Shown: positions 821 to 21,817 of the stretch, one piece after another
Numbering within the stretch: the stretch's first letter is position 1
Layout: every line of letters begins with the position of its first letter
From: an uncultured Gammaproteobacteria bacterium
GTDB taxonomy: Bacteria > Patescibacteriota > Microgenomatia > UBA10105 > UBA927
Direction of reading: 5' to 3'
Assembly: GCA_964629685.1 (NCBI GenBank)
Contig: CAZVTT010000001.1
Location: forward strand, 319,796-383,795
Length of the DNA stretch: 64,000 nucleotides
Position numbers and translations under genes: made by a program
Notes under the pieces: model-generated
Seen by the model: only the letters and a program-made list of their open reading frames with translations
What the model was told of the DNA's origin: nothing
Database searches by the model: none

Positions 821-1052
821 TTTTTGTGTATGGCTCGTCTAGTAGCGCTGTTTCTGTGCCTTTTTATTGTAATTACCTTATCTGACTGGTATACTAGAAG
901 ATATTGTTTAACGATTTAAAGTCGTTCCTCTGCTTCAGTGTGACTGTCCGAATAAAGCGGATTGTATGAGATAAATTTTTCTTATCGCATAGGGAAGCAG
1001 CTAAACACCTTTAAGTGAGAGTATCCCATGACGAAAGGAGGCGAAGAAAAGT

Positions 1053-1403
1053 ATGGCTAAAAGACTATTTGTAGGAAATCTTTCCTATAACACCGCACAG
1101 GATGCACTTGAACAGGCATTCGGACAAGTTGGACCAGTTGCGTCAGTAACAATGGTGACGGATAAATATTCCGGACAAAGCAAAGGATTTGCGTTTGTCG
1201 AAATGACAACTGATGCCGATGCACAATCAGCAATCCAGACATTGAACGGAACGACATTAGACGGTCGACAGATCGTTGTAAATGAAGCACGACCGCGTGA
1301 AGAACGGTCAGATCGGTTTTCAGGAGGTCCGGGAAGAGGCGGAAATCGGGATTTTGACCGACGCGGTGGCGGCGGTTTCTCCCGTTCACCTCGACGACGG
1401 TAA
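1053..1403 (+). CDS. RRM-type RNA-binding protein with Gly/Arg-rich tail
   Basis: RNP-2 (LFVGNL) and RNP-1 (KGFAFVEM) motifs. C-terminal RGG/GR-rich tail. RBS AAAGGAGG lies 9 nt upstream. Confidence 0.85.
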   Translation: MAKRLFVGNLSYNTAQDALEQAFGQVGPVASVTMVTDKYSGQSKGFAFVEMTTDADAQSAIQTLNGTTLDGRQIVVNEARPREERSDRFSGGPGRGGNRDFDRRGGGGFSRSPRRR

Positions 1404-1417
1404 AGAGAAAGGGGCTC

Positions 1418-1654
1418 ATGGCTAATCAAGATACGACATACCCGTGTATTCGTTGCGGTAAAGCGCGCGTAGTTGCACGGAAATGGGAAGAACAGGTAAA
1501 AACACTAACAGGGTTCACCGTTATTATACGGACGGAGACTGTGTGTCCTGATCCGGAATGTCAGCGTGCGTTAGAAGTGACGCTTGCTGATCAGGAACGG
1601 AAAAGGGTGGAGCACCAACGTGGACACAAACACAAAGGTGCGTCTGTAAAATAA
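1418..1654 (+). CDS. small zinc-ribbon protein (two CxxC pairs), hypothetical
   Basis: 78 aa with CIRCG…CPDPEC. It starts 15 nt after the RRM gene on the same strand. Confidence 0.4.
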   Translation: MANQDTTYPCIRCGKARVVARKWEEQVKTLTGFTVIIRTETVCPDPECQRALEVTLADQERKRVEHQRGHKHKGASVK

Positions 1655-1717
1655 CGTTGGCGTTTAGGGTGATACTAATACTATTCAATTCCCGATTCGC
1701 AAAGAGCGTATTTTCTC

Positions 1718-3286
1718 ATGAAAAAAGTCATTTCTTACTGGTACCTGGTCCCCTTTTTCTTAACCGTTCTCGGTATCCTTGATGCAGGTTATTTAACTTG
1801 GGAACATTTCAACAACGTTATTCCTCCCTGTTCAGTTCATATACTATTCGCCGACTGCGGACGCGTACTTACCAGTCCATATTCCATTCTCTTCGGAATC
1901 CCTTTGGCGCTTATCGGGTTAATTCACTATATGCTTGAGGCCGTAACGGCTGCAGTTGTAATTTTAACCGGGAATAAGTGGGCAAAGCGCATCTTAGTAC
2001 TGTTAGTTACCGGCGGATTACTGGCTTCCATGTATTTTGTATACATTATGTTGGGTATTATCGGAGCGATTTGCCTTTATTGTATGGGTTCCGCAATTAT
2101 AAGTTTCCTCCTCTTTGGATTTGTGCATTGGTTAATGCCAAATGAGCGGGTTTATTGGGTAGTATCCATCGGCGGACGGTTATACCGTAATGGAATTAAG
2201 CAAATATTTTTTCGATTCGAACCGGAGAAGATACATGTTTTTATGGTTGCTACAGGAGAGATTCTGGGAGCGAACCCACTGACACGGTGGCTTACTGGGT
2301 TTTTTCTCCATGTTAAGGATACAACTCTATCACAGACGACAAACGGTATATATTTTGAGAATCCTGTTGGGTTGGCAGCGGGATTTGATTATGAAGCTCA
2401 GCTGAGTCAAGTATTGGACCGTATATCCTTCGGGTTTCAAAGTGTGGGTACGATTACGCTAGGATCCTATGGCGGTAATCCCCGTCCCATGCTTGGACGT
2501 TTGCCTAAATCGAAATCGTTAATGGTAAATAAAGGTTTCAAAAATTTAGGGGTAAATGAGACGATCAAACGGTTGCAGAATAAATTATTCCGAATTCCGC
2601 TAGGAGTGAGTATCGGCCGTACCAACGGACGGGATATGTCACAAAAGGAAAGTATTCAGGATATCGTAAATTCATTTGAAGCGTTCGAATCAGCGTCAGT
2701 ATCACACGCGTATTATGAACTAAATATAAGTTGTCCTAACCTGTTGGGTTCCGTTTCATTTTATTCTCCGAAAGATCTGAACGAATTGCTGCAGGCAATT
2801 TCAAGATTAAAGATCATCAAGCCTGTATTCGTAAAGATGCCAATCGACAAAACGGATAAAGAAATATTGGCTATGATGCAGATCATAGCAAAATACGATT
2901 GGATAAAAGGACTTATTTTCGGAAATTTACAGAAAAACCGTAAAGATCCGGCTTTGGATTCCGGTGAAGTTGCGAAATTCCCGGTTGGTAATTTTAGCGG
3001 TAAGCCAACGTACCAACGGTCCAACGAGCTTATTACATTAGCCTACGAACACTATGCGGAACGATTTACTATTATTGGCTGTGGGGGAATTTTTACCGCT
3101 GAGGATGCTTACGAAAAAATCAAAAGAGGTGCATCGCTGGTGCAATTAATCACTGGTATGATTTTTAGGGGACCGCAGGTGATAGCAGATATAAATATCG
3201 GATTACGTGATTTATTGGATAAGGATGGGTACCATTCGTTATCTCAGGCTATTGGTGTATCTACAAAGAAGAAAATTAAAAACTAA
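1718..3286 (+). CDS. pyrD: fusion protein: N-terminal VKOR (vitamin K epoxide reductase-family) membrane domain plus dihydroorotate dehydrogenase (class-2-like, quinone-type) domain
   Basis: The N-terminal ~140 aa have 4 TM helices, a loop Cys pair C-x8-C-GRVLTS (human VKORC1 has C43-x7-C51-SRVFSS) and a TM CLYC motif (VKOR has CIVC). Residues ~150-522 are DHODH: quinone-tunnel helices FFRFEPEKIHVF, NPVGLAAGFD, KGFKNLGV, NISCPN and GCGGI…GASLVQLITG. Confidence 0.8.
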   Translation: MKKVISYWYLVPFFLTVLGILDAGYLTWEHFNNVIPPCSVHILFADCGRVLTSPYSILFGIPLALIGLIHYMLEAVTAAVVILTGNKWAKRILVLLVTGGLLASMYFVYIMLGIIGAICLYCMGSAIISFLLFGFVHWLMPNERVYWVVSIGGRLYRNGIKQIFFRFEPEKIHVFMVATGEILGANPLTRWLTGFFLHVKDTTLSQTTNGIYFENPVGLAAGFDYEAQLSQVLDRISFGFQSVGTITLGSYGGNPRPMLGRLPKSKSLMVNKGFKNLGVNETIKRLQNKLFRIPLGVSIGRTNGRDMSQKESIQDIVNSFEAFESASVSHAYYELNISCPNLLGSVSFYSPKDLNELLQAISRLKIIKPVFVKMPIDKTDKEILAMMQIIAKYDWIKGLIFGNLQKNRKDPALDSGEVAKFPVGNFSGKPTYQRSNELITLAYEHYAERFTIIGCGGIFTAEDAYEKIKRGASLVQLITGMIFRGPQVIADINIGLRDLLDKDGYHSLSQAIGVSTKKKIKN

Positions 3287-3302
3287 ACCTCCGGAAACGC
3301 CA

Positions 3303-4199
3303 TTATAGTCCGTAAAATTCCAATCGTTCTTTTCCGATCCGTATCCGTGGTAAGGCAAGCCTTTGCCGTTTACATAAGATGCTGCCTGGTTGCGTGGAAA
3401 AGGCGAGTGTATAGTGATGAGTATTTAAATACTCAACGGCAGAATGGTTCATACTGCCATAGGGATAAGCAAATACTTTTTGTGAGTTTAAGTTGTTTTG
3501 TTCCAGATGAAGTTCTGCAGTACTAATTTCTTGAGCAATCGTTACGGGCGTACTGGCCACGGATTTATGTGACCAAGTGTGATTGGCAATATAAAAGACA
3601 GTACTATCTGCGAGTTCATGAATATTTTGCCATGTAAGGTATCCCGGATTCTGCAGTAGTCCTGTCGGAATAAACGCTGTAGCGTTAAAGCCAAATTCCT
3701 TTAATATTGGATATCCGTATATGTACAAATCTTCATACCCGTCGTCAAACGTAATTAGTATACTTTTCCGTGGCAGGGGAATAGATTTGTCAAAAAAATC
3801 ATTCAGCTGCGTTATTGAAACTGGTACGTAGCCTTCCTGTTTAAGGTATTCCATCTGTTGTCTGAATATTTCCGGCGAGACTGACAATCCGGAAAATCCC
3901 TGTTCCTTTGCGACGGCTTCCGTTTCGATATGGTGGTACATTAACGCCGGAGTTCTAGTGCAGGGACCATACTGTGTATTCTGTTCCTCAAATGTTAAGG
4001 TTTTTTTAGGAGAAACGACTCCTTGTCCGGCTGTCGGAATTGGTTTGAATGGTGAAGTGGAAACCAGTCCCGCGGTATGCGCTGCTTCCTTTACGGATAA
4101 AGAATTTGGTATGAGAGCAGTACACAATATGGCAGCCGAAAGAATCAGAATATATGGAAAGTGAGTATGAAATAATTTTCGTTTAGTGTACCCTTGCAT
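3303..4199 (-). CDS. polysaccharide deacetylase (NodB-homology/CE4) with N-terminal membrane anchor
   Basis: NodB motif 1 ILITFDDGYED; His-containing motif NHTWSH; N-terminal hydrophobic segment. Confidence 0.75.
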   Translation of the reverse strand: MQGYTKRKLFHTHFPYILILSAAILCTALIPNSLSVKEAAHTAGLVSTSPFKPIPTAGQGVVSPKKTLTFEEQNTQYGPCTRTPALMYHHIETEAVAKEQGFSGLSVSPEIFRQQMEYLKQEGYVPVSITQLNDFFDKSIPLPRKSILITFDDGYEDLYIYGYPILKEFGFNATAFIPTGLLQNPGYLTWQNIHELADSTVFYIANHTWSHKSVASTPVTIAQEISTAELHLEQNNLNSQKVFAYPYGSMNHSAVEYLNTHHYTLAFSTQPGSILCKRQRLALPRIRIGKERLEFYGL

Positions 4200-4239
4200 A
4201 GGTTCCGTATTTTCGCTGATACGGACTACTTTCGCAAGT

Positions 4240-6780
4240 TTATCTAGATTTTAATGAAGTAAAAAAATATCGTTTAACAACCTCGACGCAGCAAAGATAC
4301 GTTATTACTATTCCGATTAGTGTTGTAAACACTAGGGGTGTTAACGGTGTAAATCCAAAAAGTTTCCCCAGTCCGGTAAACGGCAATAACCAACCAACCG
4401 CAACAGCAACAATTGTTGAAAAAAAGAGCGTCGGTTCGGGTGCGCTCTGTATAAACGGAATTTTTTTAGTTCGGATTATATATATAACCAGTGTTTGTGT
4501 CGCAAGTGATTCTAAAAACCAACCTGTTTGGAAACCGGATTGTGATAGGTGAAAAAGGCGATAGAGTACGAAAAATGTTATAAAGTCAAAGACTGAGCTT
4601 ATGCTACCGAATACGATCATAAAATTGCGGAGGAATGGCATATTCCATCGTCTGGGTTGGTTTATGTCTTCCGCATCAACCGTGTCTCCGGGAATAGTAA
4701 TTTGTGAAATATCGTAGAGCAAATTGTTTAGTAAGATCTGCATCGGCAACATGGGGAGAAAAGGTAAAAAAAGTACAGCTCCCAGCACACTGAACATATT
4801 CCCGAAATTAGAACTTACACCCATCATGGTATATTTCAACGTGTTTGCAAACGTTTTTCTTCCTGAAATAATTCCGTCTTTTAATACCGCTAAACTTTTA
4901 TTAGTAAGTATCATGTCTGCGGATTCTTTGGCTACATCTACTGCGTTTTCTACGGAAAGTCCGACATCCGCATTCTGTAATGAAGCTGCGTCATTTATAC
5001 CGTCACCCAAATATCCCACAACATGACCATTCATTTTTAGAGCACTAATAACTCTGTTTTTCTCGTCCGGAGCAAATCTCGCAAAGAGAGTAGTTTTCTC
5101 CACTACGATCCGTAATGCATCGTCAGTTAAATGATCAAGCTCGTGACCAAGAAGTGTTCCCTTAACAGGCAACCCTACTTCCCTGCAGATTTTTTCCGCA
5201 ACCAGCTCGTTGTCTCCCGTGATGACTTTCACGGTAACTCCCATAGTGTTTAGCTGCTGTATTACTTTTGAAACATCTGGTTTTGGCGGGTCCAGAAACG
5301 CAATAAATCCCAGCAGTTCCATCGCGTGCTCGTCTTTTACCGAGTATATATCCGTATGTGAACTAATAGGCTTACGTGCGACCGCTAATACCCGGAATCC
5401 ATCCGCACTCAGCTGTTGATACTGCTTTGTAGCTTTTTCTCTGATTTCTGAGGTAAATGGGTGAATATGATTTTCACGCATAACCTGTGTGCTACATCTG
5501 AATATTTCTTCCGGTGCGCCTTTGGTAATGAGGAAGCGCTGGTTGTGCTTTTCTGCGACGACACTCATTCGTTTTCTGACAAAGTCGAAGGGAATTTCGT
5601 CTATTTTCGTGTAACCATGATTAGGTACCTTCTTGTACGAAATTACGGCTTCGTCCATGGGATTTTTGATTCCGGATTGATAGCAACTATTTATATACGT
5701 ATGGATAAAAACAGTCTCGGAATGTTTCCCGAACATGTCAGTGTATTTTACAAGTTCAATGTGGTCCTTTGTGAGAGTTCCGGTTTTATCGGTACATAAT
5801 ATATCCATACTTCCTAAATTGGGTATGGATGTTAACTTTTTTACGATTACACCATGCTTTGCCATATTTACACTACCGCGAGACATGGTAACGGATAGGA
5901 TCATTGGTAATAATTCCGGCGTAAGTCCGACTGCAATTGCGACGGCAAAAGTAAATGATGTGAATAGATCAGTTTGCTTAAAAACGGTATTAAATAAAAA
6001 CACGAATAAAACAAAAAATATCGTGGTCCGTAGTATTAGAAAACTGAATTGTTTTATTCCTTTGGTAAATTCGCCTTCGATAGGTGTAGATTCAATTTGT
6101 TCAGCGATTTTTCCGAATTCAGTACGTTTCCCGGTATTGATTACGAGTCCTTTTGCCGTACCCGTAATAACACTGCTTCCCGACAATCCAATATTATGTA
6201 AATCTGGTAATCCGGATTGAACTGTGATTGCCTTTTCGTGTTTTTCCACAGGAAATGATTCACCAGTAAGTGCTGATTGATTAACGAAAAAATCTTTAGC
6301 TGTAAGAATTCGAATATCTGCCGGAATAAGTTCTCCTGAATGAAGTGAAACAATATCACCCGGAACCAGCTCCGTACTGGCAATTTCATGCTCTACTCCG
6401 TTACGGATAACAGACGTTTTAAAAGCGACTCTTTCTTTTAATTTCGCTGCTGCCCTGTCTGCTTTGAATTCTTGGGTAAAGTTTAATACGGCACTTACTG
6501 CGACTATTGCGAGAATTATTGTTCCGTCAACCGGTTGGTTTACGGTAAATGAAAGTGCAGCCGCAACAATAAGAGTGAGAACAAGTGGATTTTTAAATGT
6601 ACCGAGGAATTCCAGTAGAATATGTTTTTTTTTCTGTTCGGTAAGTTCGTTCTTACCCCAGAGTTTTTGCCTTTTTAACACTTCCGACTCCGAAAGTCCG
6701 TTTATATTCGAGGTAAGATTCCTTACTGCGGTATTGCAATCTACGCCGGAAATAGCTGAAAGTGATGGGGCGGTCATCAT
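4240..6780 (-). CDS. P-type cation-transporting ATPase (MgtA/Ca2+-type, P2/P3 family)
   Basis: 846 aa with the phosphorylation motif CTDKTGTLT, hinge GDGINDAASL, TGES-like TGESFPVEK, and 10 predicted TM helices. Confidence 0.85.
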   Translation of the reverse strand: MMTAPSLSAISGVDCNTAVRNLTSNINGLSESEVLKRQKLWGKNELTEQKKKHILLEFLGTFKNPLVLTLIVAAALSFTVNQPVDGTIILAIVAVSAVLNFTQEFKADRAAAKLKERVAFKTSVIRNGVEHEIASTELVPGDIVSLHSGELIPADIRILTAKDFFVNQSALTGESFPVEKHEKAITVQSGLPDLHNIGLSGSSVITGTAKGLVINTGKRTEFGKIAEQIESTPIEGEFTKGIKQFSFLILRTTIFFVLFVFLFNTVFKQTDLFTSFTFAVAIAVGLTPELLPMILSVTMSRGSVNMAKHGVIVKKLTSIPNLGSMDILCTDKTGTLTKDHIELVKYTDMFGKHSETVFIHTYINSCYQSGIKNPMDEAVISYKKVPNHGYTKIDEIPFDFVRKRMSVVAEKHNQRFLITKGAPEEIFRCSTQVMRENHIHPFTSEIREKATKQYQQLSADGFRVLAVARKPISSHTDIYSVKDEHAMELLGFIAFLDPPKPDVSKVIQQLNTMGVTVKVITGDNELVAEKICREVGLPVKGTLLGHELDHLTDDALRIVVEKTTLFARFAPDEKNRVISALKMNGHVVGYLGDGINDAASLQNADVGLSVENAVDVAKESADMILTNKSLAVLKDGIISGRKTFANTLKYTMMGVSSNFGNMFSVLGAVLFLPFLPMLPMQILLNNLLYDISQITIPGDTVDAEDINQPRRWNMPFLRNFMIVFGSISSVFDFITFFVLYRLFHLSQSGFQTGWFLESLATQTLVIYIIRTKKIPFIQSAPEPTLFFSTIVAVAVGWLLPFTGLGKLFGFTPLTPLVFTTLIGIVITYLCCVEVVKRYFFTSLKSR

Positions 6781-8455: not shown

Positions 8456-9952
8456 CTATTTGGTTAACTGACGCTGTATCTGCTCGAAAGCTTGATTAGG
8501 ATTTTTTATTCCCAATGCTACATCCTGAAAGAATGATGTGAGACTGGAAGCAAAATGAATATTTGATTCACCAATTATAAAACTGTAGCTTGGATAGAGT
8601 CGGAGTGATGTTCCGTATCTTTTGGATAGTTCAAAATTAAATTTACCGAATTGATTTGAAAGAGAGAGTAGGTTTTCAGGTGCAGATGTCTTTTGCATGG
8701 TAGCGGTTTGAGTATATCTAAACCATTCATGCTGAGCCTCTTCAGAGGTATACTGCATAAGAAGTTGAACGGCAAGATCTTTATGTGGACTGTTTTTAAA
8801 CACTGCCCAAGCAGGTTGATACGTACCGGAGTATACGGATGAGGCAGTGTTCATTGATGGCAATTGGACCGGCATAATTTTGGTAAGCGATTCCGAATCA
8901 ATGCTTTGCCAGTGGTTATAGAGACTTGCAGGACCAGCAGCAAACACTATTTCGTTGTTTAGAAACCGGGAATGAATATCATCTGATCTTTGGGATTGCC
9001 AGTCGGGAAGATAGAGATCGGATGCAAATGGAGCCAGGCGAGCGACTTGATTAAACGTATTTCGTAATACAGCTAATTTTGTAGGTGTTACGCTGGAATT
9101 TTCAAGTTCGTCCGGATCAAGCTGAGACAATAATAACTGATGAATAATAGGATCAAGTGCGACACTGTTAAGACTGCCACCCAAAACAGCAATATGTGTT
9201 TTATATTCTTTATTGTAGCGGGACACTGCCTGGACGAAGTCGATAAAATCATCCCACGTTAAGTCGTATGTCGGAATATCGATTCCTATTAACCCTGCGA
9301 TAGTACTGTTGACATATAACGTTTGTATTTCATTTCCGACAAATGGACCGACGAAAATATTTCCCGTATGTTTTCGAAACCAATCATCCTGTAGAAGTTC
9401 TGGTGTATGGCTTGAAGTGAAGCCGGCAATTGATGAAAAATCCACTAAATATTGTTGTCCCCAGTTCGGATCGTTTAGTTCTTCCGAGACATATCCGTAA
9501 ACGGTTGGGTTCATGATAATAATGTCAAAAGGTACTGCGTTACTGCGTATCGCATTTGCTATATATGTGGCCAGCTTTTTTGTATTACTTTCATGAATAA
9601 TTTCCCGGGGGAATTTCATGTCCACGTCAATGCCGGTTTTGCTGCTGTATGCTTGTATGAATTTACGCAGGAACGTTTCTTTCTCTCCTTCGCCATACCA
9701 GTCACCCATAATTCTAATAGTTTCCGATTTGGTACTGGCTTGCGTTCTGTCGGTAGCAGACAGGTTGGGATTACTGGGTGTAAGACCTAAAAAATACAGA
9801 CCCATACTAACCGCAACGAGTAAAACGAGAAGGCCGATTCCGAATTGAGATAAGAACGAAAAAGCGAGGTGTTTAAGGTTGTTACTTTTAGGTGAAACTA
9901 AGAGTAAAGGGGGATTGTGCTGTACCAATTCCGGCGATGCAACATCAATCAT
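8456..9952 (-). CDS. membrane-anchored extracellular solute-binding-like protein (putative glycan binding)
   Basis: N-terminal TM anchor then a ~430-aa domain with weak resemblance to family-1 ABC substrate-binding proteins. No permease or ATPase genes are adjacent. It sits next to the GH130 pair. Confidence 0.4.
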   Translation of the reverse strand: MIDVASPELVQHNPPLLLVSPKSNNLKHLAFSFLSQFGIGLLVLLVAVSMGLYFLGLTPSNPNLSATDRTQASTKSETIRIMGDWYGEGEKETFLRKFIQAYSSKTGIDVDMKFPREIIHESNTKKLATYIANAIRSNAVPFDIIIMNPTVYGYVSEELNDPNWGQQYLVDFSSIAGFTSSHTPELLQDDWFRKHTGNIFVGPFVGNEIQTLYVNSTIAGLIGIDIPTYDLTWDDFIDFVQAVSRYNKEYKTHIAVLGGSLNSVALDPIIHQLLLSQLDPDELENSSVTPTKLAVLRNTFNQVARLAPFASDLYLPDWQSQRSDDIHSRFLNNEIVFAAGPASLYNHWQSIDSESLTKIMPVQLPSMNTASSVYSGTYQPAWAVFKNSPHKDLAVQLLMQYTSEEAQHEWFRYTQTATMQKTSAPENLLSLSNQFGKFNFELSKRYGTSLRLYPSYSFIIGESNIHFASSLTSFFQDVALGIKNPNQAFEQIQRQLTK

Positions 9953-9963
9953 ATGCGATTCCG

Positions 9964-11895
9964 TTAGGTAAGTGCATCTAAAAGTCGTTTAATCTCAATG
10001 GTTGCGACACATAAATATTGGTCAGCCCCGCCATAGTATACGTACAACATACCCCCAATTTGGACAACACCGTTGGAGAAAACGGTTCCGTCACGTACGC
10101 CCTTGTTCTCGTATTCTGTGGTGGGTTCAAGGATTGGATCGTCAAGTCTGGAAATAACTTTTTCCGGTGCATGTAGGTCCAACAGCAATGCACCCAGCCT
10201 ATATTTTCTGTCTTCCTTTGATACACCGTGATAGATAAGTAACCAACCTATATCAGTTTTAATTGGCGGTCCGGCTATTCCCACTTTTTCGCTATCCCAT
10301 CTGGCTACTCTGGGATCTAGCAGAATCTCACCTTTAATCCATTGGTTGTCAGCAAAATGCAATTCGTCTACAAAATCAATCCAGATACAGGGATCAATCC
10401 TATGCAAAATAACATATTTTCCGTTAACCTTTTCAGGGAAGATGCATGAATTTTTTTCATCTATGCCTGGTGGAGATATGAGTACCGGTTTTTCCCATAT
10501 CCACTTCTTATTTACAAAATCCGATGCTGAAATTGAGGTTAGAGCTACCCTGGTAGGACTTTTTGCATCATAAGCGGTATAGCACATGTAAATACGATCA
10601 TCGATTTTAGTAATTCTTGCATCTTCACAACCTGAATTACCATATGCATTTTTCTTTTCGAACGGTTCGCGGGGAACATATATCGGTTCAGGAAGCCTTT
10701 CGTCTATATGCAATCCGTCAGTACTATTCGCATACCCGATTACGGATGTGTCATCATTTCCCATTGCGCGATAGAGTATATGTACTTTTCCTGCTTCGTA
10801 GACAGCTGCAGCATTAAAGGTGGCTTTTGACTCCCAAGAATGATACGGACGTGGTTGTATTGTTGGGTTACCTGCAAAACGTTCAAGTTTTATTATCGGT
10901 TTTTTTGTTGTTTTTGTATTATGACTGGCGTAGGATTCAAAATCCGCCAGCAGGTCTTTTAAAGACATTGTTGCGACACAGCAGGTAGTGTCAGCGGCTC
11001 CGTAATATAAACGAACTTCGTCACCATCAACCGTTGCGCCTGACGGAAATATTACATTTGCAACGTCGCCATACAGTTCATAATCCAACTCAGGTATCAG
11101 TAATGGATTTGTAATTCTTCCAATAATTTGTTGTGGATTTTCCAGGTCTAGTAGTACTGCTTCTATTCCGAATAGCCGGAATGGGGTGGTGTAATTCCGA
11201 ATATACGAATAAAAGAGTAACCACCCTTTTTCGGTTTTAATAGGAGGTGATCCTAGCTCAATATGATCATGTGCCGATCGTTGCAATGGTATGGTGTGTT
11301 CATTGAGGTTGCTATACCAGGATCTCCAAATATCTGCGTTCCATAAATCAGCTTCTCTGTCTACGTAGGCTACGGCTATTTTAGCCGGTGGGATATCGGT
11401 GTTAACCGTAGTAATAACAGCAATTTTTCCGTTAATTCTTTCCGGAAAGATTGCCGTTGCCTTAGCATTAAATGGCGTCATGAGATGTTTTTCTTCAATA
11501 GTTTGGAAGTCCCTGGTAATTGCTAAGGCAACTTTTATATTGTTTGCGCCAAACGGGTATCCGGAAAGGGCTGTATAACAAATGTAATATTTGCCGTCCA
11601 GTTTTGTAACCCGCGGATCTTCACAGCCGTATTTCTCCCAGTCGTACTCCGGAGAAATAAACTGGGTTCTGTTGATAAAATGTTCCCCATCATAGCTTTT
11701 TGCATAGCCAATAGTGGAAAGTTTAAGTGTAATTCCGGAAAAATAAGGAGTCGGAGCAGATAGTGCCCGGTATACCATGTGAAATACACCGCTATCTTTA
11801 ACGGGACAGCCGTTAAATGCCGCATCTGATTCCCACGGATTTTTATTATTGGGGGAAACAATGGGATTCTCTTCCGATCGTTTAACGATAACCAT
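9964..11895 (-). CDS. tandem two-domain GH130-family glycoside phosphorylase/hydrolase (two complete GH130 modules)
   Basis: Both halves carry GH130 hallmarks: CEDPR/CEDAR, GWLL(F/I)Y(S/H)…, YYG(A/G)AD. Confidence 0.75.
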   Translation of the reverse strand: MVIVKRSEENPIVSPNNKNPWESDAAFNGCPVKDSGVFHMVYRALSAPTPYFSGITLKLSTIGYAKSYDGEHFINRTQFISPEYDWEKYGCEDPRVTKLDGKYYICYTALSGYPFGANNIKVALAITRDFQTIEEKHLMTPFNAKATAIFPERINGKIAVITTVNTDIPPAKIAVAYVDREADLWNADIWRSWYSNLNEHTIPLQRSAHDHIELGSPPIKTEKGWLLFYSYIRNYTTPFRLFGIEAVLLDLENPQQIIGRITNPLLIPELDYELYGDVANVIFPSGATVDGDEVRLYYGAADTTCCVATMSLKDLLADFESYASHNTKTTKKPIIKLERFAGNPTIQPRPYHSWESKATFNAAAVYEAGKVHILYRAMGNDDTSVIGYANSTDGLHIDERLPEPIYVPREPFEKKNAYGNSGCEDARITKIDDRIYMCYTAYDAKSPTRVALTSISASDFVNKKWIWEKPVLISPPGIDEKNSCIFPEKVNGKYVILHRIDPCIWIDFVDELHFADNQWIKGEILLDPRVARWDSEKVGIAGPPIKTDIGWLLIYHGVSKEDRKYRLGALLLDLHAPEKVISRLDDPILEPTTEYENKGVRDGTVFSNGVVQIGGMLYVYYGGADQYLCVATIEIKRLLDALT

Positions 11896-13753
11896 ACTTT
11901 TGTGTTAGAACGGGAGTAACCCGAGCATTACCGGACTCTAAGAGTGTATGCAAGAACGGCTGTATGGGCGCAGTCGCGGTGCATACCACGGTATCTGCTC
12001 CTCCGTAGTACACAAATAAGTTGTCGTTGTGGATTACCGCTCCGCAGGGATATGCGACTCCTGCCTTAAATCCGTCGTTTTCATGTTCATGTTCCGGGGC
12101 AAGAATCGGGACTCTGGATCTGGCAATAACTTTCGTCGGATCTTTAAGGTCCAAAAGCATTGCTCCCATTTTATATTTCCCGGGATCCCGTTCTCCGACT
12201 GCATGGTATATAAGCAGCCAGCCGAAAGGAGTTTTGATCGGGGGCGGACCTGCGCCAACTTTGCGGCTGTCCCAGCCGTTACGGCTCGGACGGATCATAT
12301 AATCACCTTTCAGGAAGTTAGTTTCGCCGTCAAAATCCATTGAATCAACAAAATCAATGAGGATATTGGGAAATATCCTATGAAGGATAACGTATTTTCC
12401 GTCGACTTTTTCGGGGAGAATAACGCAGTTTTTATTTACGACTCCAGGACCTGAAATTAGTACCGGCTCGTTCCAATTCCATTCCCGGGCGAGAAAATTA
12501 TCCACTGGAATCGAGCTCAGTGCGACTCTGGGGGGATTTCTTCCGTCATATGCTATATAAGTTAAATACATCGTATCGTCTATTTTAGTGAGTCTTGGGT
12601 CTTCGCAGCCTCCATAGCCACCACCGGACATATAAAGTCTGTTGGGAACATAGGGAGCTTGATTGTTCGGTGATTCAAAAGGAGCTCTAGGGTAATAAAT
12701 CGGTTCGTCCAGACGTTCGTCGATTGAATATCCGTCTGTAGAAGTAGCGTATCCTAACACAGACGTATCGTCTTCTCCGATCGCGCGGTAAACTAAATGT
12801 ATTTTACCGTTCAGGTAAACAGCTGCCGGATTGAACGTTGCCCTGGATTCCCAAAAATGATTGACTATCGGTTTAATAATTGGATTTCCGCGGAATCGTT
12901 TTAATATCATTGAAGGAATAGTCGGGTTTGTGTCGAATGCGCGGGTTAACGATGTATGGGGTATGGCAAAAATACCCTGCGTAGGATGAGACCAGTATGA
13001 AATTAGTTTTCCCCGATAGTAAACTACACCGACGGGAGAAATAGATTGATCTGTCCATTCATCCGTTTGTTCCCAAAGTGTGTCTGATTGCCATAGCAGT
13101 TTTCTCGGGTTTTTACGGTCAAGTAGTACTGCATGGAGCGAGTAGTGATCTTTTCCTTGATGCTCACTGAGTGCCCAGTATACGACTGCTATTCCCTCGG
13201 GTGTCGTGACAATTGTACCCAGTTTGAAGTTTGATGAGCCTGCATGATCCATGGATGGTTCCAGAATGCTTTCGGAAACCGTTTCCCAGGATGTGAGATC
13301 TTTTGACGTTGCCATTCTTATACTTTGTTCACCATAGAGAGCTACATATGAATCGTTGAGGCGGAAGTCAGGGATAAGCATGGTAGTTTCCTGAAGTTCG
13401 CTCATTTTTCCATTGCGTTTCCAATGGATAAGGTCAGTAGAGAATGCACAGTAGATGGCATCCTGAAATCGTTGTTTAAACTTGTAGGTAAGGAAATATT
13501 TACCTTCGATGTGGCTAATGCGGAAATTGCTGCATTTATCGATGGGAAGCTCCCGGCGTTGATTATCCTTTATCTCTCCTATTTGCTTCGTCAGGTGAAA
13601 GTCGAGCCCGTCTTTACTGTTTAGTACTGACCAGTGGAATGTGTCTACATGATTATCCTGTACGAACAGATACACTTCATCCTGCTTGGTCGTGACACCG
13701 AGTCCTTGAGTTTTTTTGAGTTCATTTGAAGGCAGTGCGTCTGACATATTCAT
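11882..13753 (-). CDS. two-domain GH130-like protein (divergent N-terminal beta-propeller plus canonical GH130 C-terminal module)
   Basis: The C-terminal half has WESRATFNPAAVY, CEDPR, GWLLIYHAVG and YYGGAD. The N-terminal half is a divergent propeller lacking these motifs. The gene overlaps the previous GH130 gene by 14 nt. Confidence 0.7.
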   Translation of the reverse strand: MNMSDALPSNELKKTQGLGVTTKQDEVYLFVQDNHVDTFHWSVLNSKDGLDFHLTKQIGEIKDNQRRELPIDKCSNFRISHIEGKYFLTYKFKQRFQDAIYCAFSTDLIHWKRNGKMSELQETTMLIPDFRLNDSYVALYGEQSIRMATSKDLTSWETVSESILEPSMDHAGSSNFKLGTIVTTPEGIAVVYWALSEHQGKDHYSLHAVLLDRKNPRKLLWQSDTLWEQTDEWTDQSISPVGVVYYRGKLISYWSHPTQGIFAIPHTSLTRAFDTNPTIPSMILKRFRGNPIIKPIVNHFWESRATFNPAAVYLNGKIHLVYRAIGEDDTSVLGYATSTDGYSIDERLDEPIYYPRAPFESPNNQAPYVPNRLYMSGGGYGGCEDPRLTKIDDTMYLTYIAYDGRNPPRVALSSIPVDNFLAREWNWNEPVLISGPGVVNKNCVILPEKVDGKYVILHRIFPNILIDFVDSMDFDGETNFLKGDYMIRPSRNGWDSRKVGAGPPPIKTPFGWLLIYHAVGERDPGKYKMGAMLLDLKDPTKVIARSRVPILAPEHEHENDGFKAGVAYPCGAVIHNDNLFVYYGGADTVVCTATAPIQPFLHTLLESGNARVTPVLTQKYGYR

Positions 13754-14727: not shown

Positions 14728-15495
14728 TTAGAGGATAATTATCCAAAAAAGAAGTGCTAAAAGTATCCGGTAAATTCCGAAGTGAATTAAAGAATATTTT
14801 TGGACAAACTTACGAAAAAGTGAAACCGTAATCCACGCGGAGATAAACGCAACAATAAAGCCTGTCCCGAGGGCAAAGAGTTCCTCTCCGGTATATGCAT
14901 GTTTGCTTTTGACTAGGTCGTACACTGTTGCTGCCAGCATTGTCGGTATGGCTAAGAGAAATGAAAAATCCACGGCTGCAATCCGCGTCAGTCCACTGAT
15001 TTGGCCTCCAATTATTGTGGCAGCTGAACGGGAAACCCCGGGAATAACCGAAAACGATTGTGCGATTCCTATGATGACGGCTTGTTTTGCATTTACGGTA
15101 GTTTGATGATGGTTGTTTTTTTGGTGTGATTGAAGATATTCAAAAAGGATGAGTAATATTCCGCCGATAAAAAGCGTAAGTACAGTAATGTGTGCATTTC
15201 CTAACAGGTATGTTTTAATAAATTTGTAAAAGAACAGACCGACTAATGCGGCAGGCAAGAACGCAATTCCGATCGGTTTCCACAACTGAGTTTTGGTAAA
15301 TATCGATTTACTATACATCAATGTTATTGCACCTATGGCTCCAAGTTGGATAAATATTTCAAAACTTTTTATAAAATCCGTCTGAGGTATTCCCAATAAG
15401 TTACTCACAAGAATCATATGTCCCGTGGAAGAAATGGGAAGGAATTCTGTAATACCTTCAACCAATGCGATGGCAAAAATTTGTAAGAAATTCAT
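14728..15495 (-). CDS. uppP: undecaprenyl-diphosphate phosphatase UppP (BacA)
   Basis: ITEFLPISSTGHMIL and PGVSRSAATI motifs; 8 TM helices. Confidence 0.9.
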   Translation of the reverse strand: MNFLQIFAIALVEGITEFLPISSTGHMILVSNLLGIPQTDFIKSFEIFIQLGAIGAITLMYSKSIFTKTQLWKPIGIAFLPAALVGLFFYKFIKTYLLGNAHITVLTLFIGGILLILFEYLQSHQKNNHHQTTVNAKQAVIIGIAQSFSVIPGVSRSAATIIGGQISGLTRIAAVDFSFLLAIPTMLAATVYDLVKSKHAYTGEELFALGTGFIVAFISAWITVSLFRKFVQKYSLIHFGIYRILLALLFWIIIL

Positions 15496-15596
15496 ATGTC
15501 TGTCTTATCATACTTGATTCTATTTTTAATGGCTACGATTACAGAACGATCGGAACGTTGCGACAATGAAAACTTGTATGTTATGATCGTTAACAC

Positions 15597-16496
15597 ATGA
15601 GGCGTAAGGTTATATTTTTGTTATTAATCGTAGGATTATTTTCAGGAATACTGTTGTTAGTACGGGTAGTTCGTGGTGGCGCACCAAAGTACGGAGTATT
15701 GAAAATTACCAGTAATCCTGCTGCCACTGTTTTCCTGGACAACAAGAATATAGGTAGAACACCATTTGAAGATAAAGTACTAGTCGGTGAATATACGTTG
15801 AAGTTGATTCCCGAGACGACAGTGCAGACGTTGATTCCCTGGCAGGGGAAAATTAGGGTTTCCACAAATTTGCTTACATACATTAATCGTGATTTATCCG
15901 ACTCCGAGTTATCGGCCGCCGGGGAATTATTGTGGTTGGAAAAAATATCCAGCTCGTTATCAGAACTTTCCGTATCAACCGTTCCCGATGGTGGAAATGT
16001 TATTTTGGATGAACAGGTAAAGGGTGTTTCTCCCTTATCTATTACCGGCATATCTGCCGGTGACCACACGCTTACCATTACTTCACCCGGCTTTTTTTCC
16101 AGGACATTGAAGATTAAAAATACCGGGGGGTACAAGTTAAACGCAGCAGTTCAGCTGGGGTTAGCACCAGGAGGATTAACGCCGACGCCTGAACCGGCAA
16201 TAACGGACATACCCGATGAAACGCCGACGCCGTCAAGCATTCTTACGCCTACGCCAAGTAAAAGTGCCACTTCATCTGCAGCTAAAATTCCTAAGAAGCC
16301 TTACGTAACAATTGGAGATACTCCGACAGGATTTTTAAGGGTACGTGCTGAACCGCAGACTAGTGCAGATGAAATAGGAAGAGTAAATCCCGGGGAAAAA
16401 TATTCCTTGCTTGCCTCCGAATCCGGATGGTATAAAATACAGTTTAATGATAAAGAAGGCTGGATCTCGGGCCAATATGCTACGAAGGTAGAGTAA
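15597..16496 (+). CDS. membrane-anchored PEGA-domain / SH3b-domain protein
   Basis: N-terminal TM; PEGA-like repeats (…VFLDNKNIGRTPFE…, …VILDEQVKGVSPL…); TP-rich linker; C-terminal SH3b-like GWYKIQFNDKEGWISGQY. Confidence 0.5.
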   Translation: MRRKVIFLLLIVGLFSGILLLVRVVRGGAPKYGVLKITSNPAATVFLDNKNIGRTPFEDKVLVGEYTLKLIPETTVQTLIPWQGKIRVSTNLLTYINRDLSDSELSAAGELLWLEKISSSLSELSVSTVPDGGNVILDEQVKGVSPLSITGISAGDHTLTITSPGFFSRTLKIKNTGGYKLNAAVQLGLAPGGLTPTPEPAITDIPDETPTPSSILTPTPSKSATSSAAKIPKKPYVTIGDTPTGFLRVRAEPQTSADEIGRVNPGEKYSLLASESGWYKIQFNDKEGWISGQYATKVE

Positions 16497-16497
16497 A

Positions 16498-17436
16498 TTA
16501 TCCTCCAATTCCATAGACGACTAAGAAGATAGTAATACTCCATATAATTACAGTCGAAAGTAAAGGCAGATCAGAAGTAAGTATTTTTTCCGGTGATTCT
16601 CCTTGTCCTTCATAAATAAGCTGCATATAACGCATGATTCCGAATAACACAAATGGTACCGTGATCATAAGCCATTTTCGTTCAGGAAGGTCTGCAGTAA
16701 AGTCATAGTAGTTACGGAAAAAGAATCCCCTGTTGCTCGGCCTTTCAAGGAATGTATAAAGGGCGTACGCGATGAATGTAGAATTTGCGAACATAGCCGT
16801 GTATGTATCGAGTAGTTTTTCGGAATAGTGGGTGAGACTGGTCCTTACGTCTTTTGCTACAACTCCTTGGTATCCCTGAATTAGTGTTAACTCCGCTCTG
16901 CGTTTTCCAATAGCTAAAAATAGTGCCAGTGATAGGGCTGCTAAAGCCAACCATATAGATATGTGGAATCCGGTTGCCGCTTCACCCGCGTATACCCGGA
17001 TAAAATATGCTGCAGTTATGGCAAGAATATCTATAACCGAAATATGTTTTAAAACGAGTGAGTATAAATACTGTAGTAATACGAAAAGTATAGCCAGCAG
17101 GAAAAAGGAGTGACTAATAAAATAACTAATCGTAAGCCCGGTAATAAGAAACGTAATGGAGACGAAAAGTGCGAGTGGGATTGGTACTGTTCCTAAAGCA
17201 ATTGGGCGGAATTTTTTAAACGGATGTAACCTGTCACGCGGAGCGTCAATAATATCGTTAATGAAATAGCTGGATGAGGAGAGAAAACAGAATGCAATAA
17301 ACCCCCACGTTGTAGTACTGAAATACCGGGGATCAAAAAACTGGCCGGTAAATAGTATCGTTGTATAGAGCGCAATATTTTTCAGCCATTGTCTGGGTCT
17401 TGCGGCTTTGATAACTGCGTAAAGAAGTTGACCCAT
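16498..17436 (-). CDS. UbiA-family prenyltransferase, decaprenyl-phosphate phosphoribosyltransferase (DPPR synthase)-like
   Basis: N-terminal RPRQWLKN and NDIIDAPRDRLHP (NDxxDxxxD) motifs typical of the Rv3806c-like UbiA clade; 8-9 TM helices. Confidence 0.7.
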   Translation of the reverse strand: MGQLLYAVIKAARPRQWLKNIALYTTILFTGQFFDPRYFSTTTWGFIAFCFLSSSSYFINDIIDAPRDRLHPFKKFRPIALGTVPIPLALFVSITFLITGLTISYFISHSFFLLAILFVLLQYLYSLVLKHISVIDILAITAAYFIRVYAGEAATGFHISIWLALAALSLALFLAIGKRRAELTLIQGYQGVVAKDVRTSLTHYSEKLLDTYTAMFANSTFIAYALYTFLERPSNRGFFFRNYYDFTADLPERKWLMITVPFVLFGIMRYMQLIYEGQGESPEKILTSDLPLLSTVIIWSITIFLVVYGIGG

Positions 17437-18464
17437 ACTAAAAATCCTCCGATACCTACGCCTACGAGTAAGAGAGCAAAGAATTTTTCACGACTCGTTA
17501 CGAACAGTGCAATTGCCCCAAGTATAGCTGAGACTCCCCAGTAAAACAAGGCAATTCTTCTCTTTCCCCACCCTAAATCCAGTAGCCGGTGATGGAGGTG
17601 ACCCCTATCAGCCCAGACCGGGGATTTACCTTTTCCGATTCTGCGTACGACCGTATAGATAGCGTCGATTGTGGGTATACCGAGAACTAATAGTGCGGTT
17701 CCGAATTTACCGTAGGAAAGTATTCCCAGTACACCTAACAGAAATCCGGCAAGTGTTTTCCCTCCGTATCCCGGCATTATTTTCTGGGGGAAAAAATTCC
17801 ATGGTAAAAATCCTAAAAAAGAGCCGGCGACTATAAACGCCAGAACGGCTACTGTAGCCTGTGATACATCCGGACCACTAAAACGTAATGCCAAAATGCC
17901 AAGTATAAATGCACTAATAGAGACGAAACCGGGCATTTGTCCGTCTACTCCTGCAGACCAGCCTACGATATTCATCGTCCACATAATCCATATAAACGCG
18001 ATTAAATCAGACCAAACGAGGATTGAATGTTCACCGAAAAAAGTAAATGTAAGTCTCCAGGTATCAAGATTCAGAATGCCGCCTGTTAGCGGGTTGGTGA
18101 TAAACGGTATGCCGATTCCGGCAGCTACTACTATAAGCGCAGCCAGAGCGTTAGTAAAAAGCCGTAAATATGGACTAACATCTTTCTTATCGTCCCGTAA
18201 TCCAATATATACCAGCAATCCGGAGGCTAGGAGTATTGCTAGATTCCTTTTTGTGAGTGGAAGAAGAAGAAATGAACAAAGTAGTAATCCCAGGAAAATG
18301 GCAAGTCCTCCAGCTCTCGGAATGATACCAGTGTGAGTATGTGCAGGGTGGTAGCGGGTGCTGGCATCGTCGACAAGTCCCTTTTTCCTAGCCAGGGTAA
18401 TCACAATTGGGGTGATTATATACGTCAAAACGGTTGCCAGAATGAGTGGTACTGCAAAGTCCAT
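17382..18464 (-). CDS. polyprenyl-phosphate N-acetylhexosamine-1-phosphate transferase (GT4 MraY/WecA family)
   Basis: 360 aa, multi-TM, with conserved MraY/WecA cytoplasmic loops (DD…, NxxNxxDGxDGL-like VGWSAGVDGQMPG, HHxxxxGW-like HLHHRLLDLGW). Confidence 0.8.
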   Translation of the reverse strand: MDFAVPLILATVLTYIITPIVITLARKKGLVDDASTRYHPAHTHTGIIPRAGGLAIFLGLLLCSFLLLPLTKRNLAILLASGLLVYIGLRDDKKDVSPYLRLFTNALAALIVVAAGIGIPFITNPLTGGILNLDTWRLTFTFFGEHSILVWSDLIAFIWIMWTMNIVGWSAGVDGQMPGFVSISAFILGILALRFSGPDVSQATVAVLAFIVAGSFLGFLPWNFFPQKIMPGYGGKTLAGFLLGVLGILSYGKFGTALLVLGIPTIDAIYTVVRRIGKGKSPVWADRGHLHHRLLDLGWGKRRIALFYWGVSAILGAIALFVTSREKFFALLLVGVGIGGFLVWVNFFTQLSKPQDPDNG

Positions 18465-18503
18465 ACAGGGTTATGTAAACACTGCTATAGAATGTACGTG
18501 ACG

Positions 18504-18896
18504 CTATGTCACAAGGAAAATAATATTTATTAAAGTAATTGTAGATAAAAGGCTAACCGTAAGTGCTGCCAGAAATAGTATTTGTCCGAATATTCGATAA
18601 AGTTTAAGATACTTACCAACAAACCATAACGTAAAAATATACCAGATGATGCTTCCTCCGGGTAGAAGTAATAACCAGATCGGTTGAGCAAGTTGTTCGT
18701 CTCCCCAGGGTTTGGAGTACCACAACGGAACCATAGGCGGAAGTTGATTCCATCGCCAGATAAGTATAACTATACCTAAACCGCTCAAGGCTAGCGTAAA
18801 TTTTGTTGTAGTTTGGGCAATCCAGTTGGCTTCGATTGTCTCCCGTATCCCTGCCAAGCGTCTACGAACTATTTGTGCAACATGTGAATGAGACAT
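18504..18896 (-). CDS. small integral membrane protein, hypothetical
   Basis: 130 aa with 3-4 TM helices, located between the GT4 and GT-C genes. Confidence 0.4.
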   Translation of the reverse strand: MSHSHVAQIVRRRLAGIRETIEANWIAQTTTKFTLALSGLGIVILIWRWNQLPPMVPLWYSKPWGDEQLAQPIWLLLLPGGSIIWYIFTLWFVGKYLKLYRIFGQILFLAALTVSLLSTITLINIIFLVT

Positions 18897-18898
18897 GA

Positions 18899-20269: not shown

Positions 20270-20289
20270 GATGTTGCCCCTTATCAGTA

Positions 20290-21771: not shown

Positions 21772-21817
21772 AACTGCGTTATGCTTTAATTATAGCATGC
21801 TAAAGCCCTATATTCGT

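Follow-up and report, generated by a model that had tools for sequence, protein, structure and literature searches.

The window analyzed here, a stretch of 64,000 nucleotides from contig CAZVTT010000001.1, carries on its forward strand a gene that fuses a VKOR (vitamin K epoxide reductase) to a dihydroorotate dehydrogenase (DHODH). The gene (positions 1718..3286) is one uninterrupted open reading frame (ORF) that encodes 522 amino acids between an ATG and a TAA. Pfam recognizes both halves above cut-off: PF07884 (VKOR) aligns with residues 13–135 (90 bits against a cut-off of 27.5, E = 1.9e-25, profile positions 4–132 of 134), and PF01180 (DHO_dh) with residues 204–500 (167.5 bits against a cut-off of 27, E = 4.9e-49). 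A sequence-only reading of this DNA had placed the two enzymes in one protein and proposed profile searches of each half, and the two matches bear it out. The source annotation of the fused proteins is just 'quinone-dependent dihydroorotate dehydrogenase' and ignores the VKOR half.

An architecture of this kind could arise trivially if a chimeric assembly, a frameshift, or the loss of a stop codon had joined neighboring VKOR and pyrD genes, and one archaeal metagenome-assembled genome (MAG) has separate, overlapping DHODH and VKOR genes, so that such adjacency exists. We rejected this artefact, whose probability we hold to be negligible. The Logan assembly of SRR14271365, an independent assembly, is 100% identical across 1801 nt that include the gene and its junction. 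In a database of 5.8 billion proteins, all 120 best matches share the continuous PF07884 and PF01180 architecture in 510–550 residues; they are 52–75% identical to the window protein, except P0001, which is the window's own protein (100%), they were drawn from NCBI, JGI, ENA, and Logan, and the named ones are Roizmanbacteria, Levybacteria, and Woesebacteria. The archaeal genes also lie in the reverse order, DHODH then VKOR, and the predicted junction in the fusion is a continuous helix-Pro-helix (pLDDT ~97). The frameshift or assembly join that the sequence-only reading had named as its refuting case is thus ruled out, and the recurrence it had asked about is found, both in these 120 matches and in ~11 fused clusters at 50% identity. 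It is near certain that the gene product is one conserved membrane protein, bifunctional and of this architecture.

Table 1. Features of the fusion gene, in window coordinates.
Feature	Position	Strand	Evidence
Complete VKOR-DHODH fusion gene, 522 aa, ATG..TAA	1718..3286	+	ORF, Pfam/NCBIfam, independent assembly
VKOR four-helix membrane domain; transmembrane helices (TM) TM1 aa 10–31, TM2 aa 63–84, TM3 aa 87–115, TM4 aa 120–139	1745..2134	+	PF07884, AlphaFold2 helices, hydropathy/positive-inside, 4nv2/3kp9 alignment
Outward-facing loop 1 with shuttle Cys pair C38/C47 (nt 1829–1858) and conserved S53/Y55	1811..1903	+	Invariant in 110 fused and in divergent fused lineages; net acidic
CXXC redox motif C119-L-Y-C122 at outer end of TM4	2072..2083	+	Invariant; in register with CMYC of Synechococcus VKOR
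Domain junction W138-L-M-P-N-E-R-V145; TM4 into DHODH helix α1, no fifth TM helix	2129..2152	+	AlphaFold2 helices 120–139 and 141–164, pLDDT ~97; K/R-rich after TM4
DHODH N-terminal helical quinone-tunnel domain, aa 141–197, with invariant H173 (nt 2234–2236; E. coli H19/human H56)	2138..2308	+	NCBIfam class-2 models, TM-score 0.95 to 8ofw, H173 in 110/110
FMN-binding TIM-barrel DHODH catalytic domain, aa 204–515	2327..3262	+	PF01180, PDB matches
GFDY: Tyr225 in place of class-2 Lys (E. coli K66/human K100), subclade hallmark	2381..2392	+	Residue map, tree
R261 (E. coli R102/human R136), quinone-site arginine, invariant	2498..2500	+	Residue map
VNKGFKN: Val270 in place of orotate-binding Asn (E. 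coli N111), then Asn271	2525..2545	+	Residue map
NISCPN active-site loop, aa 336–341; C339 (nt 2732–2734) at catalytic-base position	2723..2740	+	Alignments, residue map
GCGG FMN-phosphate motif, clade-enriched Cys455 (class 2: GVGG)	3077..3088	+	Residue map
QLITG: Ile478 in place of FMN/quinone-interface Tyr (E. coli Y318/human Y356)	3143..3157	+	Residue map

The N-terminal half aligns with the VKOR of Synechococcus (4nv2, 3kp9) over all four helices at low similarity (E = 6e-5), with C38/C47, the conserved Ser, and C119-x-x-C122 in register. These four cysteines and the serine are invariant in every fused lineage, down to 38–44% identity. For this domain, conservation across fused lineages peaks in the outward loop, where 10 of 29 columns reach ≥90%, and is poor in cytoplasmic loop 2 and in the linker. 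With its profile match, predicted four-helix bundle, loop Cys pair, Ser, and CXXC, the half is strongly supported by its motifs as a VKOR with the full catalytic set, and the cysteines had been correctly picked out at the outset from the sequence. It lacks the fifth TM helix and exported thioredoxin-like domain that mark the Synechococcus-type VKOR-thioredoxin subfamily. The two systems have in common the four-TM core and a VKOR hard-wired to a redox partner; however, the fifth helix of the Synechococcus protein (3KP9, 4NV2) puts its thioredoxin-like domain outside, at the thiol end of the relay, whereas the partner in the fusion is a flavoenzyme on the cytoplasmic side, at the quinone end.

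Four hydrophobic segments span this half, and among 110 family members Lys and Arg abound at the N-terminus, in loop 2, and in the segment that follows TM4, whereas the loop with the Cys pair is net acidic. We predict a canonical VKOR topology with the N-terminus inside and both Cys motifs outside; the DHODH domain would be cytoplasmic because no fifth helix follows TM4. Hydropathy, the distribution of Lys and Arg, and the helices predicted by AlphaFold2 agree on a CXXC outside and a DHODH inside, the orientation that the sequence-only reading had wanted checked. The AlphaFold2 model, built from a 110-sequence alignment, has a mean predicted local distance difference test (pLDDT) of 94.7 and a predicted template modeling score (pTM) of 0.92 for the whole chain. 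In a chain whose smaller domain makes up 27%, a pTM of this size exceeds what random placement of that domain would give and suggests a confidently predicted mutual arrangement of the two. TM4 (aa 120–139) continues through Pro141 into DHODH helix α1 (aa 141–164) at pLDDT ~97, followed in the N-terminal domain of the DHODH by helices 169–185 and 187–197. The DHODH half superimposes on the M. tuberculosis enzyme (8ofw) with a TM-score of 0.95 and a root-mean-square deviation of 1.6 Å, N-terminal helices included.

The NCBIfam models for quinone-dependent DHODH align from residue ~155 to the C-terminus and therefore include the class-2 N-terminal helices. TIGR01036 scores 215 bits against a cut-off of 200 and NF003652 a marginal 269 against 267; eight other class-2 equivalogs stay under their cut-offs. 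The closest solved relative is the full-length M. tuberculosis DHODH (8ofw, E = 9e-45). The full class-2-type DHODH with quinone-tunnel helices that had been read from the sequence is therefore confirmed, by profile and by structure. Class-1A membership fares poorly: model NF002702 gives 58.9 bits against a cut-off of 301, class-1A matches in the PDB reach E = 1e-9 to 1e-13 versus 1e-45 for class 2, and the protein is not of the soluble form that does without an N-terminal helical domain, although it has the Cys base of that class. C339 occupies the position of the catalytic base, Ser175 in E. coli and Ser215 in human: NISCPN aligns with NVSSPN of 8ofw and NISSPN of E. coli PyrD, as the sequence-only reading had supposed. 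E. coli numbering follows a PyrD sequence that was confirmed to be 100% identical to 1f76.

[quoted passage not shown] Invariant in the 110 fused proteins are C38, C47, S53, C119, C122, H173, R261, N336, C339, N341, K373, and N403; pairwise identity among them is ~45% in the VKOR half and 59% in the DHODH half, and both catalytic sets are under purifying selection. The quinone-tunnel His (E. coli 19) and Arg (E. coli 102) are present in 110/110. Across the CPR/DPANN clade sampled, H19 and R102 of the quinone site, N172, N177, N246, K217, and the FMN-phosphate glycines are kept, whereas S175C, N111V, N139S, T178L/A, T247L, Y318I, and Q92Y/C are altered. At the K66 position, Tyr stands in 109/110 fused proteins and in 6/37 unfused ones, the nearest relatives, and Lys in 30/37 unfused and 37/37 canonical proteins. 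The position of Cys455 holds Cys in 100/110 fused, 12/37 unfused CPR/DPANN, and 0/37 canonical proteins. Most unfused members (25/37) have an additional Cys at the E. coli Q92 position, two residues ahead of the GN motif.

The base position is Cys in 110/110 fused proteins and in 37/37 unfused CPR/DPANN proteins, the latter a sample biased to Cys-bearing members because one of the two scan patterns was YYELNISC, and Ser in 33/37 canonical proteins. The remaining 4/37, otherwise canonical class-2 enzymes of the Flavobacteriia Kordia, Aurantibacter, and Vicingus (L041, L055, L069, L075), also have Cys (NVSCPN). The presence of the Cys stands as first read, but it is no peculiarity of the fusion: since all the unfused CPR/DPANN relatives examined share it, we take it as a clade character and not as a consequence of being fused.

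The comparison with class-2 DHODHs (E. coli PyrD 1F76, M. tuberculosis 8OFW, human) thus cuts both ways. The fold, including the N-terminal quinone-tunnel domain, is the same, as are H19, R102, and the FMN-phosphate glycines. We take K66, N111, N139, N172, N177, K217, N246, T247, and Y318 to be the orotate and FMN contacts; the fusion keeps N172, N177, K217, and N246 and has K66→Tyr, N111→Val, N139→Ser, T247→Leu, and Y318→Ile, besides Ser175→Cys and T178→Leu. It is also joined to a polytopic membrane protein, whereas class-2 enzymes are peripheral or single-anchor, and its host reportedly has no quinone synthesis and no respiratory chain, unlike the usual class-2 setting. Because the Ser base and the full Asn/Lys set are absent, the DHODH half appears better described as a Cys-type class-2-like DHODH. 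It has what defines the Cys-type class-II DHODs of PMC8520639, namely a class-II scaffold, a Cys base, and a lineage from anoxic niches. Bouwknegt et al. described such enzymes in Neocallimastigomycetes, Schizosaccharomyces japonicus, and Dekkera bruxellensis (ArUra9, SjUra9, and DbUra9), where they sustain anaerobic, respiration-independent pyrimidine synthesis; the Cys was needed in one of them, one worked with free flavins, and another was aided by fumarase mutations (PMC8520639). For the DHODH half, these fungal enzymes are the closest functional precedent. They differ in being eukaryotic, of independent origin, and unfused to VKOR, and ArUra9, which uses free flavins, has lost the N-terminal quinone domain that the CPR enzyme keeps together with its His and Arg.

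Relatives were collected from species-representative genomes with two sequence patterns, and the counts are those of the matches listed. At least four fused loci (L001–L004) were found, along with at least about 35 unfused relatives that are 35–53% identical and cover query residues ~150–517. Among these matches, the unfused bacterial relatives come from Saccharibacteria, Paceibacterota, Levy-, Andersen-, Berkel-, Uhr-, and Magasanikbacteria, the archaeal ones from the DPANN Pace-, Woese-, and Nanoarchaeota, and all have NISCPN. CPR bacteria and DPANN archaea fall into one DHODH clade at 35–50% identity (L005–L039), which suggests transfer between the domains. Four third-party annotation MAG records labeled Pseudomonadales, Gammaproteobacteria, or Methanosarcinales (L003, L004, L014, L021) carry the CPR/DPANN-type DHODH, two of them as VKOR fusions; their taxonomic labels look unreliable.

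When 1.84 billion cluster representatives were searched with the DHODH half, the 150 best clusters at 50% identity included ~11 VKOR fusions. With one exception, the fused clusters lie inside the GFDY (K66Y) subclade of a rough neighbor-joining tree without support values, interleaved with forms whose in-frame stops upstream establish them as truly unfused. This interleaving implies that several fusion or fission events probably took place. A Nanoarchaeota MAG (L034) shows the same partnership as two genes: a DHODH gene (9911–11062) is followed by a gene for a 142-residue protein with all four Cys (11059–11487), named VKOR family protein by NCBI, whose ATG overlaps the DHODH stop codon by 4 nt (ATGA). 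The adjacency in L034, in the reverse order, is independent of the fusion. A homology search for relatives of this stand-alone VKOR, with a word index too insensitive for the purpose, found only itself. Single proteins join the CPR/DPANN-type DHODH to other partners: in P0145, a PAP2 membrane phosphatase is fused at the N-terminus, and in P0136, a cytidylyltransferase/FAD-synthetase-like domain is fused at the C-terminus.

Both domains come from known families; what is new is the attachment of a cytoplasmic flavoenzyme to the quinone side of a VKOR, which is undescribed in the literature searched. Literature searches on VKOR in connection with DHODH, CPR, Patescibacteria, or metagenomes brought up no account of a VKOR-DHODH fusion, and a phylogeny paper on the VKOR family does not mention one, so the conserved pairing is apparently undescribed. 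Giant viruses pair a VKOR, by adjacency or fusion, with a non-thioredoxin enzyme by way of vitamin K or quinol (PMC13486548). Unlike the CPR fusion, their partners are a gamma-carboxylase-like epoxidase and a desaturase, and the VKOR works in its normal direction in the eukaryotic endoplasmic reticulum.

The host is a groundwater bacterium with a tiny genome, a member of the CPR Microgenomates; the type-IV pilus, FemAB, MurJ, and GH130 genes of the window fit this lineage. Microgenomates lack a respiratory chain or respiratory capacity (PMC7143001), and CPR genomes lack quinone-synthesis genes (PMC8407418), so that the sequence-only reading was apt in stressing an organism without a quinone pool. 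VKOR homologues of quinone-less Clostridia are thought to rely on scavenged quinones (PMC12453122). The 64-kb window holds no genes of respiration or of the tricarboxylic acid (TCA) cycle and no pyr, Dsb/Trx/DsbA, or quinone-synthesis genes. One UbiA-family gene (16498–17436) was considered as MenA/UbiA and rejected, since in NCBIfam it falls under decaprenyl-phosphate phosphoribosyltransferase, an enzyme of the cell envelope (NF008978, 212 bits against 207).

That no pyrimidine genes adjoin the fusion, as the sequence-only reading had noted, holds for the whole window; as evidence on the substrate the observation has little weight, because the gene has no conserved neighborhood anywhere. At three annotated loci of distant fused members there are no conserved pyr, Dsb/Trx, or quinone neighbors, and a pooled Pfam scan of 138 neighbors from 39 loci gave 153 families, of which the most frequent, NUDIX, had 3 members. 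Probes with E. coli PyrB, PyrC, PyrE, and PyrF, for which canonical class-2 loci served as positive controls, found no pyrB, pyrC, pyrE, or pyrF in ~735 kb of CPR/DPANN flanks of related genes, where ~3 matches would be expected if every genome carried the pathway at random positions; this is weakly suggestive. A PyrB-like match in L002 was discarded as an ornithine carbamoyltransferase, next to a serine recombinase and not a dihydroorotase. The survey of PMC11608272 reports that the pyrimidine module commonly complete in CPR leaves out the de novo part. A Nudix hydrolase gene lies ≤20 nt from the fused gene in 3/7 fused loci with flanks (L002 7229–7687, L082 9526–9984, L083 11568–12032) and within 4.2 kb of it in L001, and is absent from the window. 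Directly upstream of the fusion, a 78-residue ORF with four Cys (1418–1654) was dropped as a linked gene, being without counterpart at other loci. No sigma-70-like promoter match was found at window positions 1000–4300, where shuffles would lead one to expect 7.5 ± 2.7; nor can a clear Shine-Dalgarno sequence be seen upstream of the ATG at 1718, and an Rfam search of the window gave no matches.

Two other groups of genes in the window bear on thiol and electron chemistry. The tandem genes 39827–41065 (−) and 41068–42303 (−) encode 100% identical proteins of 411/412 residues (405/405 aligned residues), each of which has 23 Cys, linkers rich in Pro and Thr, and an anchor at the N-terminus. The gene next to this pair, 38772–39824 (−), encodes 42 Cys (12%) in repeated C-x3-C-x5-C-like modules. 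Pfam gives no match for the three anchored proteins; the genes sit in a GC-rich stretch (GC 0.47–0.50 versus ~0.41), and most other predicted exported proteins of the window have no Cys. Given these proteins, extracytoplasmic cysteine chemistry is relevant to the host. The second group centers on a ferric-reductase/MsrQ-like protein with nine TM helices fused to a YtkA-like domain (26089–27681 (+)), which scores 47.5 bits against an MsrQ cut-off of 130 and is adjoined by genes for a DUF1775 protein (28654–29328 (+)) and a Fur-family regulator (29390–29803 (−)). This cluster may serve metal reduction or haem-b electron transfer and is a candidate quinol consumer.

Electron flow between the two domains of the fusion, and its direction, are hypotheses throughout. 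The account that we rank first, offered tentatively and as a possibility short of probable, couples the VKOR and DHODH halves via a membrane quinone, which would be scavenged because the cell cannot make it. Dihydroorotate (DHO) would be oxidized at FMN, and FMNH2 would reduce a quinone entering from the inner leaflet by the tunnel of the conserved His173 and Arg261. The quinol would then move to the VKOR pocket of the same polypeptide, where the enzyme would run opposite to its textbook direction, reducing the CXXC disulfide and regenerating the quinone, and the electrons would exit via the loop cysteines, to be taken up by an exported thioredoxin-like partner or by extracellular disulfides. 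The net reaction would be DHO + extracytoplasmic R-S-S-R → orotate + 2 R-SH. This adopts a version of the shared-quinone or electron-relay idea of the sequence-only reading, which we regard as plausible. If true, it would give the DHODH an electron sink and the envelope reducing power without a respiratory chain, as DsbD/CcdA do elsewhere. DsbD, CcdA, and ScsB likewise supply exported thiol-disulfide proteins with reducing equivalents of cytoplasmic origin; unlike the fusion, DsbD-type proteins are cysteine cascades fed by thioredoxin/NADPH, with no quinone, no flavin, and no sequence relationship.

We favor such a coupled quinone cycle because two quinone reducers cannot both turn over without a quinol oxidase, and because proximity helps only if one half consumes the product of the other. 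The ~11 fused clusters and the overlapping genes of L034 support a functional linkage beyond one fusion event, and the window contains no genes for an alternative quinol sink or for quinone synthesis, which we count in its favor. Menaquinone has a potential of about −74 mV. The step between thiols and menaquinone should lie near equilibrium, and a strong quinone reductase fused to the VKOR would tend to push it backwards. DHOD-bound FMN lies at −242 to −330 mV (PMC8520639), DsbA at −120 mV, and the periplasm at about −160 mV (PMC11921322), so that the path from DHO to disulfide would be downhill overall. By analogy with the fungal enzymes, in which the base Cys goes with respiration-independent function of a class-II DHOD, the Cys may also count for this account.

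Several observations weigh against it. No VKOR or DsbB homologue has been shown to act as a physiological quinol:disulfide reductase, and all characterized bacterial ones oxidize DsbA-like partners (PMC12453122, PMC13486548). The Cys-rich anchored proteins of the window suggest a need for disulfide formation and not reduction. The supply of DHO is unproven, with no pyrB, pyrC, pyrE, or pyrF in the window or the 735 kb of flanks, and CPR genomes are often without the de novo part (PMC11608272); for these reasons, and because of N111V, K66Y, N139S, and T247L in the active site, DHO is doubtful as the substrate, which may be another compound. The VKOR cytoplasmic face and the linker are poorly conserved, and the inter-domain path of the quinone is putative. 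Finally, the PAP2 fusion of the same DHODH type suggests that some fusions may be mere membrane tethers.

The last two points fit an arrangement in which the two halves keep independent canonical activities, the VKOR oxidizing an exported DsbA-like partner, the DHODH oxidizing DHO, and both reducing quinone. Fusion would then anchor the DHODH at the membrane and keep two users of a scarce, scavenged quinone together, and the quinol would be re-oxidized elsewhere, by O2 autoxidation, a host-derived system, or a membrane protein such as the MsrQ-like haem protein (26089–27681). We rank this second and think it rather unlikely. It needs no new chemistry: every characterized bacterial VKOR is a thiol oxidase (PMC12453122), the DHODH half exceeds two NCBIfam equivalog cut-offs, and the fungal Cys-type class-II enzymes remain DHODHs (PMC8520639). 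A fusion to the unrelated PAP2 (P0145) is expected if tethering is the benefit, weak conservation of the linker and cytoplasmic VKOR loops agrees with it, the Cys-rich exported proteins would need an oxidase, and the ferric-reductase/MsrQ-like protein is a possible quinol consumer. However, the match of that protein lies far under the family cut-off, and competing quinone reducers gain nothing from channeling. As there is no respiratory chain (PMC7143001), nearby quinone would remain in its reduced form, and the DHODH (~−250 mV) would either stall or reverse the near-equilibrium VKOR. The ~11 VKOR-fusion clusters and an independent operon, set against one PAP2 cluster, also point to a specific partnership.

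The need for disulfide formation and the doubt about DHO could instead be reconciled by a respiration-independent disulfide-forming machine, which we rank third and consider improbable. Here the VKOR would run forward, from exported thiols through the Cys relay to quinone, and the fused flavoenzyme would be the quinol oxidizer: quinol would reduce FMN via the tunnel, and FMNH2, with Cys339 as general acid, would reduce a cytoplasmic enoate such as fumarate, orotate, or a similar compound. The DHODH-like domain may then be an orphan outside pyrimidine synthesis. Class-1A DHODHs use this chemistry of C=C reduction with fumarate. To our knowledge, however, no DHODH takes electrons from quinol, and we know of no DHODH-family enzyme that acts as a fumarate-reductase-type sink for disulfide formation. 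The working model is provided by relays that end in flavoprotein fumarate reductases under anoxia, DsbB-menaquinone-fumarate reductase in E. coli and Erv1-Osm1 in yeast, which likewise tie thiol oxidation outside the cytoplasm to a C=C-reducing flavoenzyme (PMC5638582, PMC11921322). Unlike the fusion, these are separate proteins of unrelated folds, and Frd and Osm1 are FAD fumarate reductases. A Cys at the base position is typical of C=C-reducing enzymes (class 1A and dihydropyrimidine dehydrogenase), and FUM1 mutations improved the anaerobic function of the Cys-type DbUra9 (PMC8520639). The Cys-rich exported proteins of the host, the lack of pyr genes in the 735 kb of flanks, the common absence of the de novo part in CPR (PMC11608272), and the loss of polar, pyrimidine-recognizing residues (N111V, T247L, K66Y) all lean the same way. 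Energetics do not: from menaquinol, taken as above at about −74 mV, to the FMN of DHODs (−242 to −330 mV, PMC8520639), electrons would have to climb 170–250 mV. As in true DHODHs, moreover, K217, the complete NxSCPN loop, and three of the four Asn that bind orotate are kept, and the source of fumarate is doubtful in an organism without a TCA cycle.

Beyond the quinone-coupled account ranked first, we entertain a more general proposal, whose chances we put nearly level with those of its negation. In it, the protein would be a self-contained transmembrane redox wire, with one captive, scavenged quinone reduced at one face of the membrane and re-oxidized at the other; a flavin reaction in the cytoplasm, either the oxidation of DHO or the reduction of an enoate at the site of Cys339, would be tied in this way to thiol/disulfide chemistry outside it. 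In its fullest version, FMN would be a hub, and a Cys-enabled enoate-reductase half-reaction would be the common sink for DHO oxidation and VKOR-driven disulfide formation. In either direction, such a wire would make the protein the first VKOR or the first class-2-type DHODH to act as a physiological quinol oxidizer, and it would explain 'quinone-dependent' enzymes in CPR and DPANN organisms without a quinone pool.

Elsewhere in the window, a cell-envelope cluster at 14728–22513 (−) encodes BacA, the UbiA-family decaprenyl-phosphate phosphoribosyltransferase, a GT4 protein (MraY/WecA-like), and several GT2 proteins, and probably represents, for a CPR bacterium, a lipid-carrier step of the arabinan type. 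GH130 mannoside-phosphorylase genes form a tandem pair (9964–13753 (−), 643 and 623 residues) beside a gene for a solute-binding protein, and each product has an unannotated N-terminal extension of ~300 residues. The GC skew over positions 1–64000 is positive in all 2-kb bins but one, whatever the gene orientation, and accumulates to 3.04; similar strand asymmetry has been reported for some Microgenomates genomes (PMC7143001).

By published descriptions, the hosts of these proteins have neither quinone synthesis nor a respiratory chain, but they retain enzymes whose annotation is quinone-dependent. A conserved Microgenomates fusion, repeatedly gained or lost and mirrored by a DPANN operon, is a Rosetta-stone hint that the two enzymes work jointly. 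If they do, two questions become testable: which electron acceptor a DHODH uses without respiration, and what drives or balances extracytoplasmic disulfide chemistry under the same condition. The association of a Cys base with anaerobic function in class-II DHODs, known from three fungal lineages, would come to include a very large clade of prokaryotes, whose further active-site changes, K66Y, N111V, and Y318I, could steer enzymology. For the bacterium itself, the fusion may let a cell without a respiratory chain pass electrons across its membrane.

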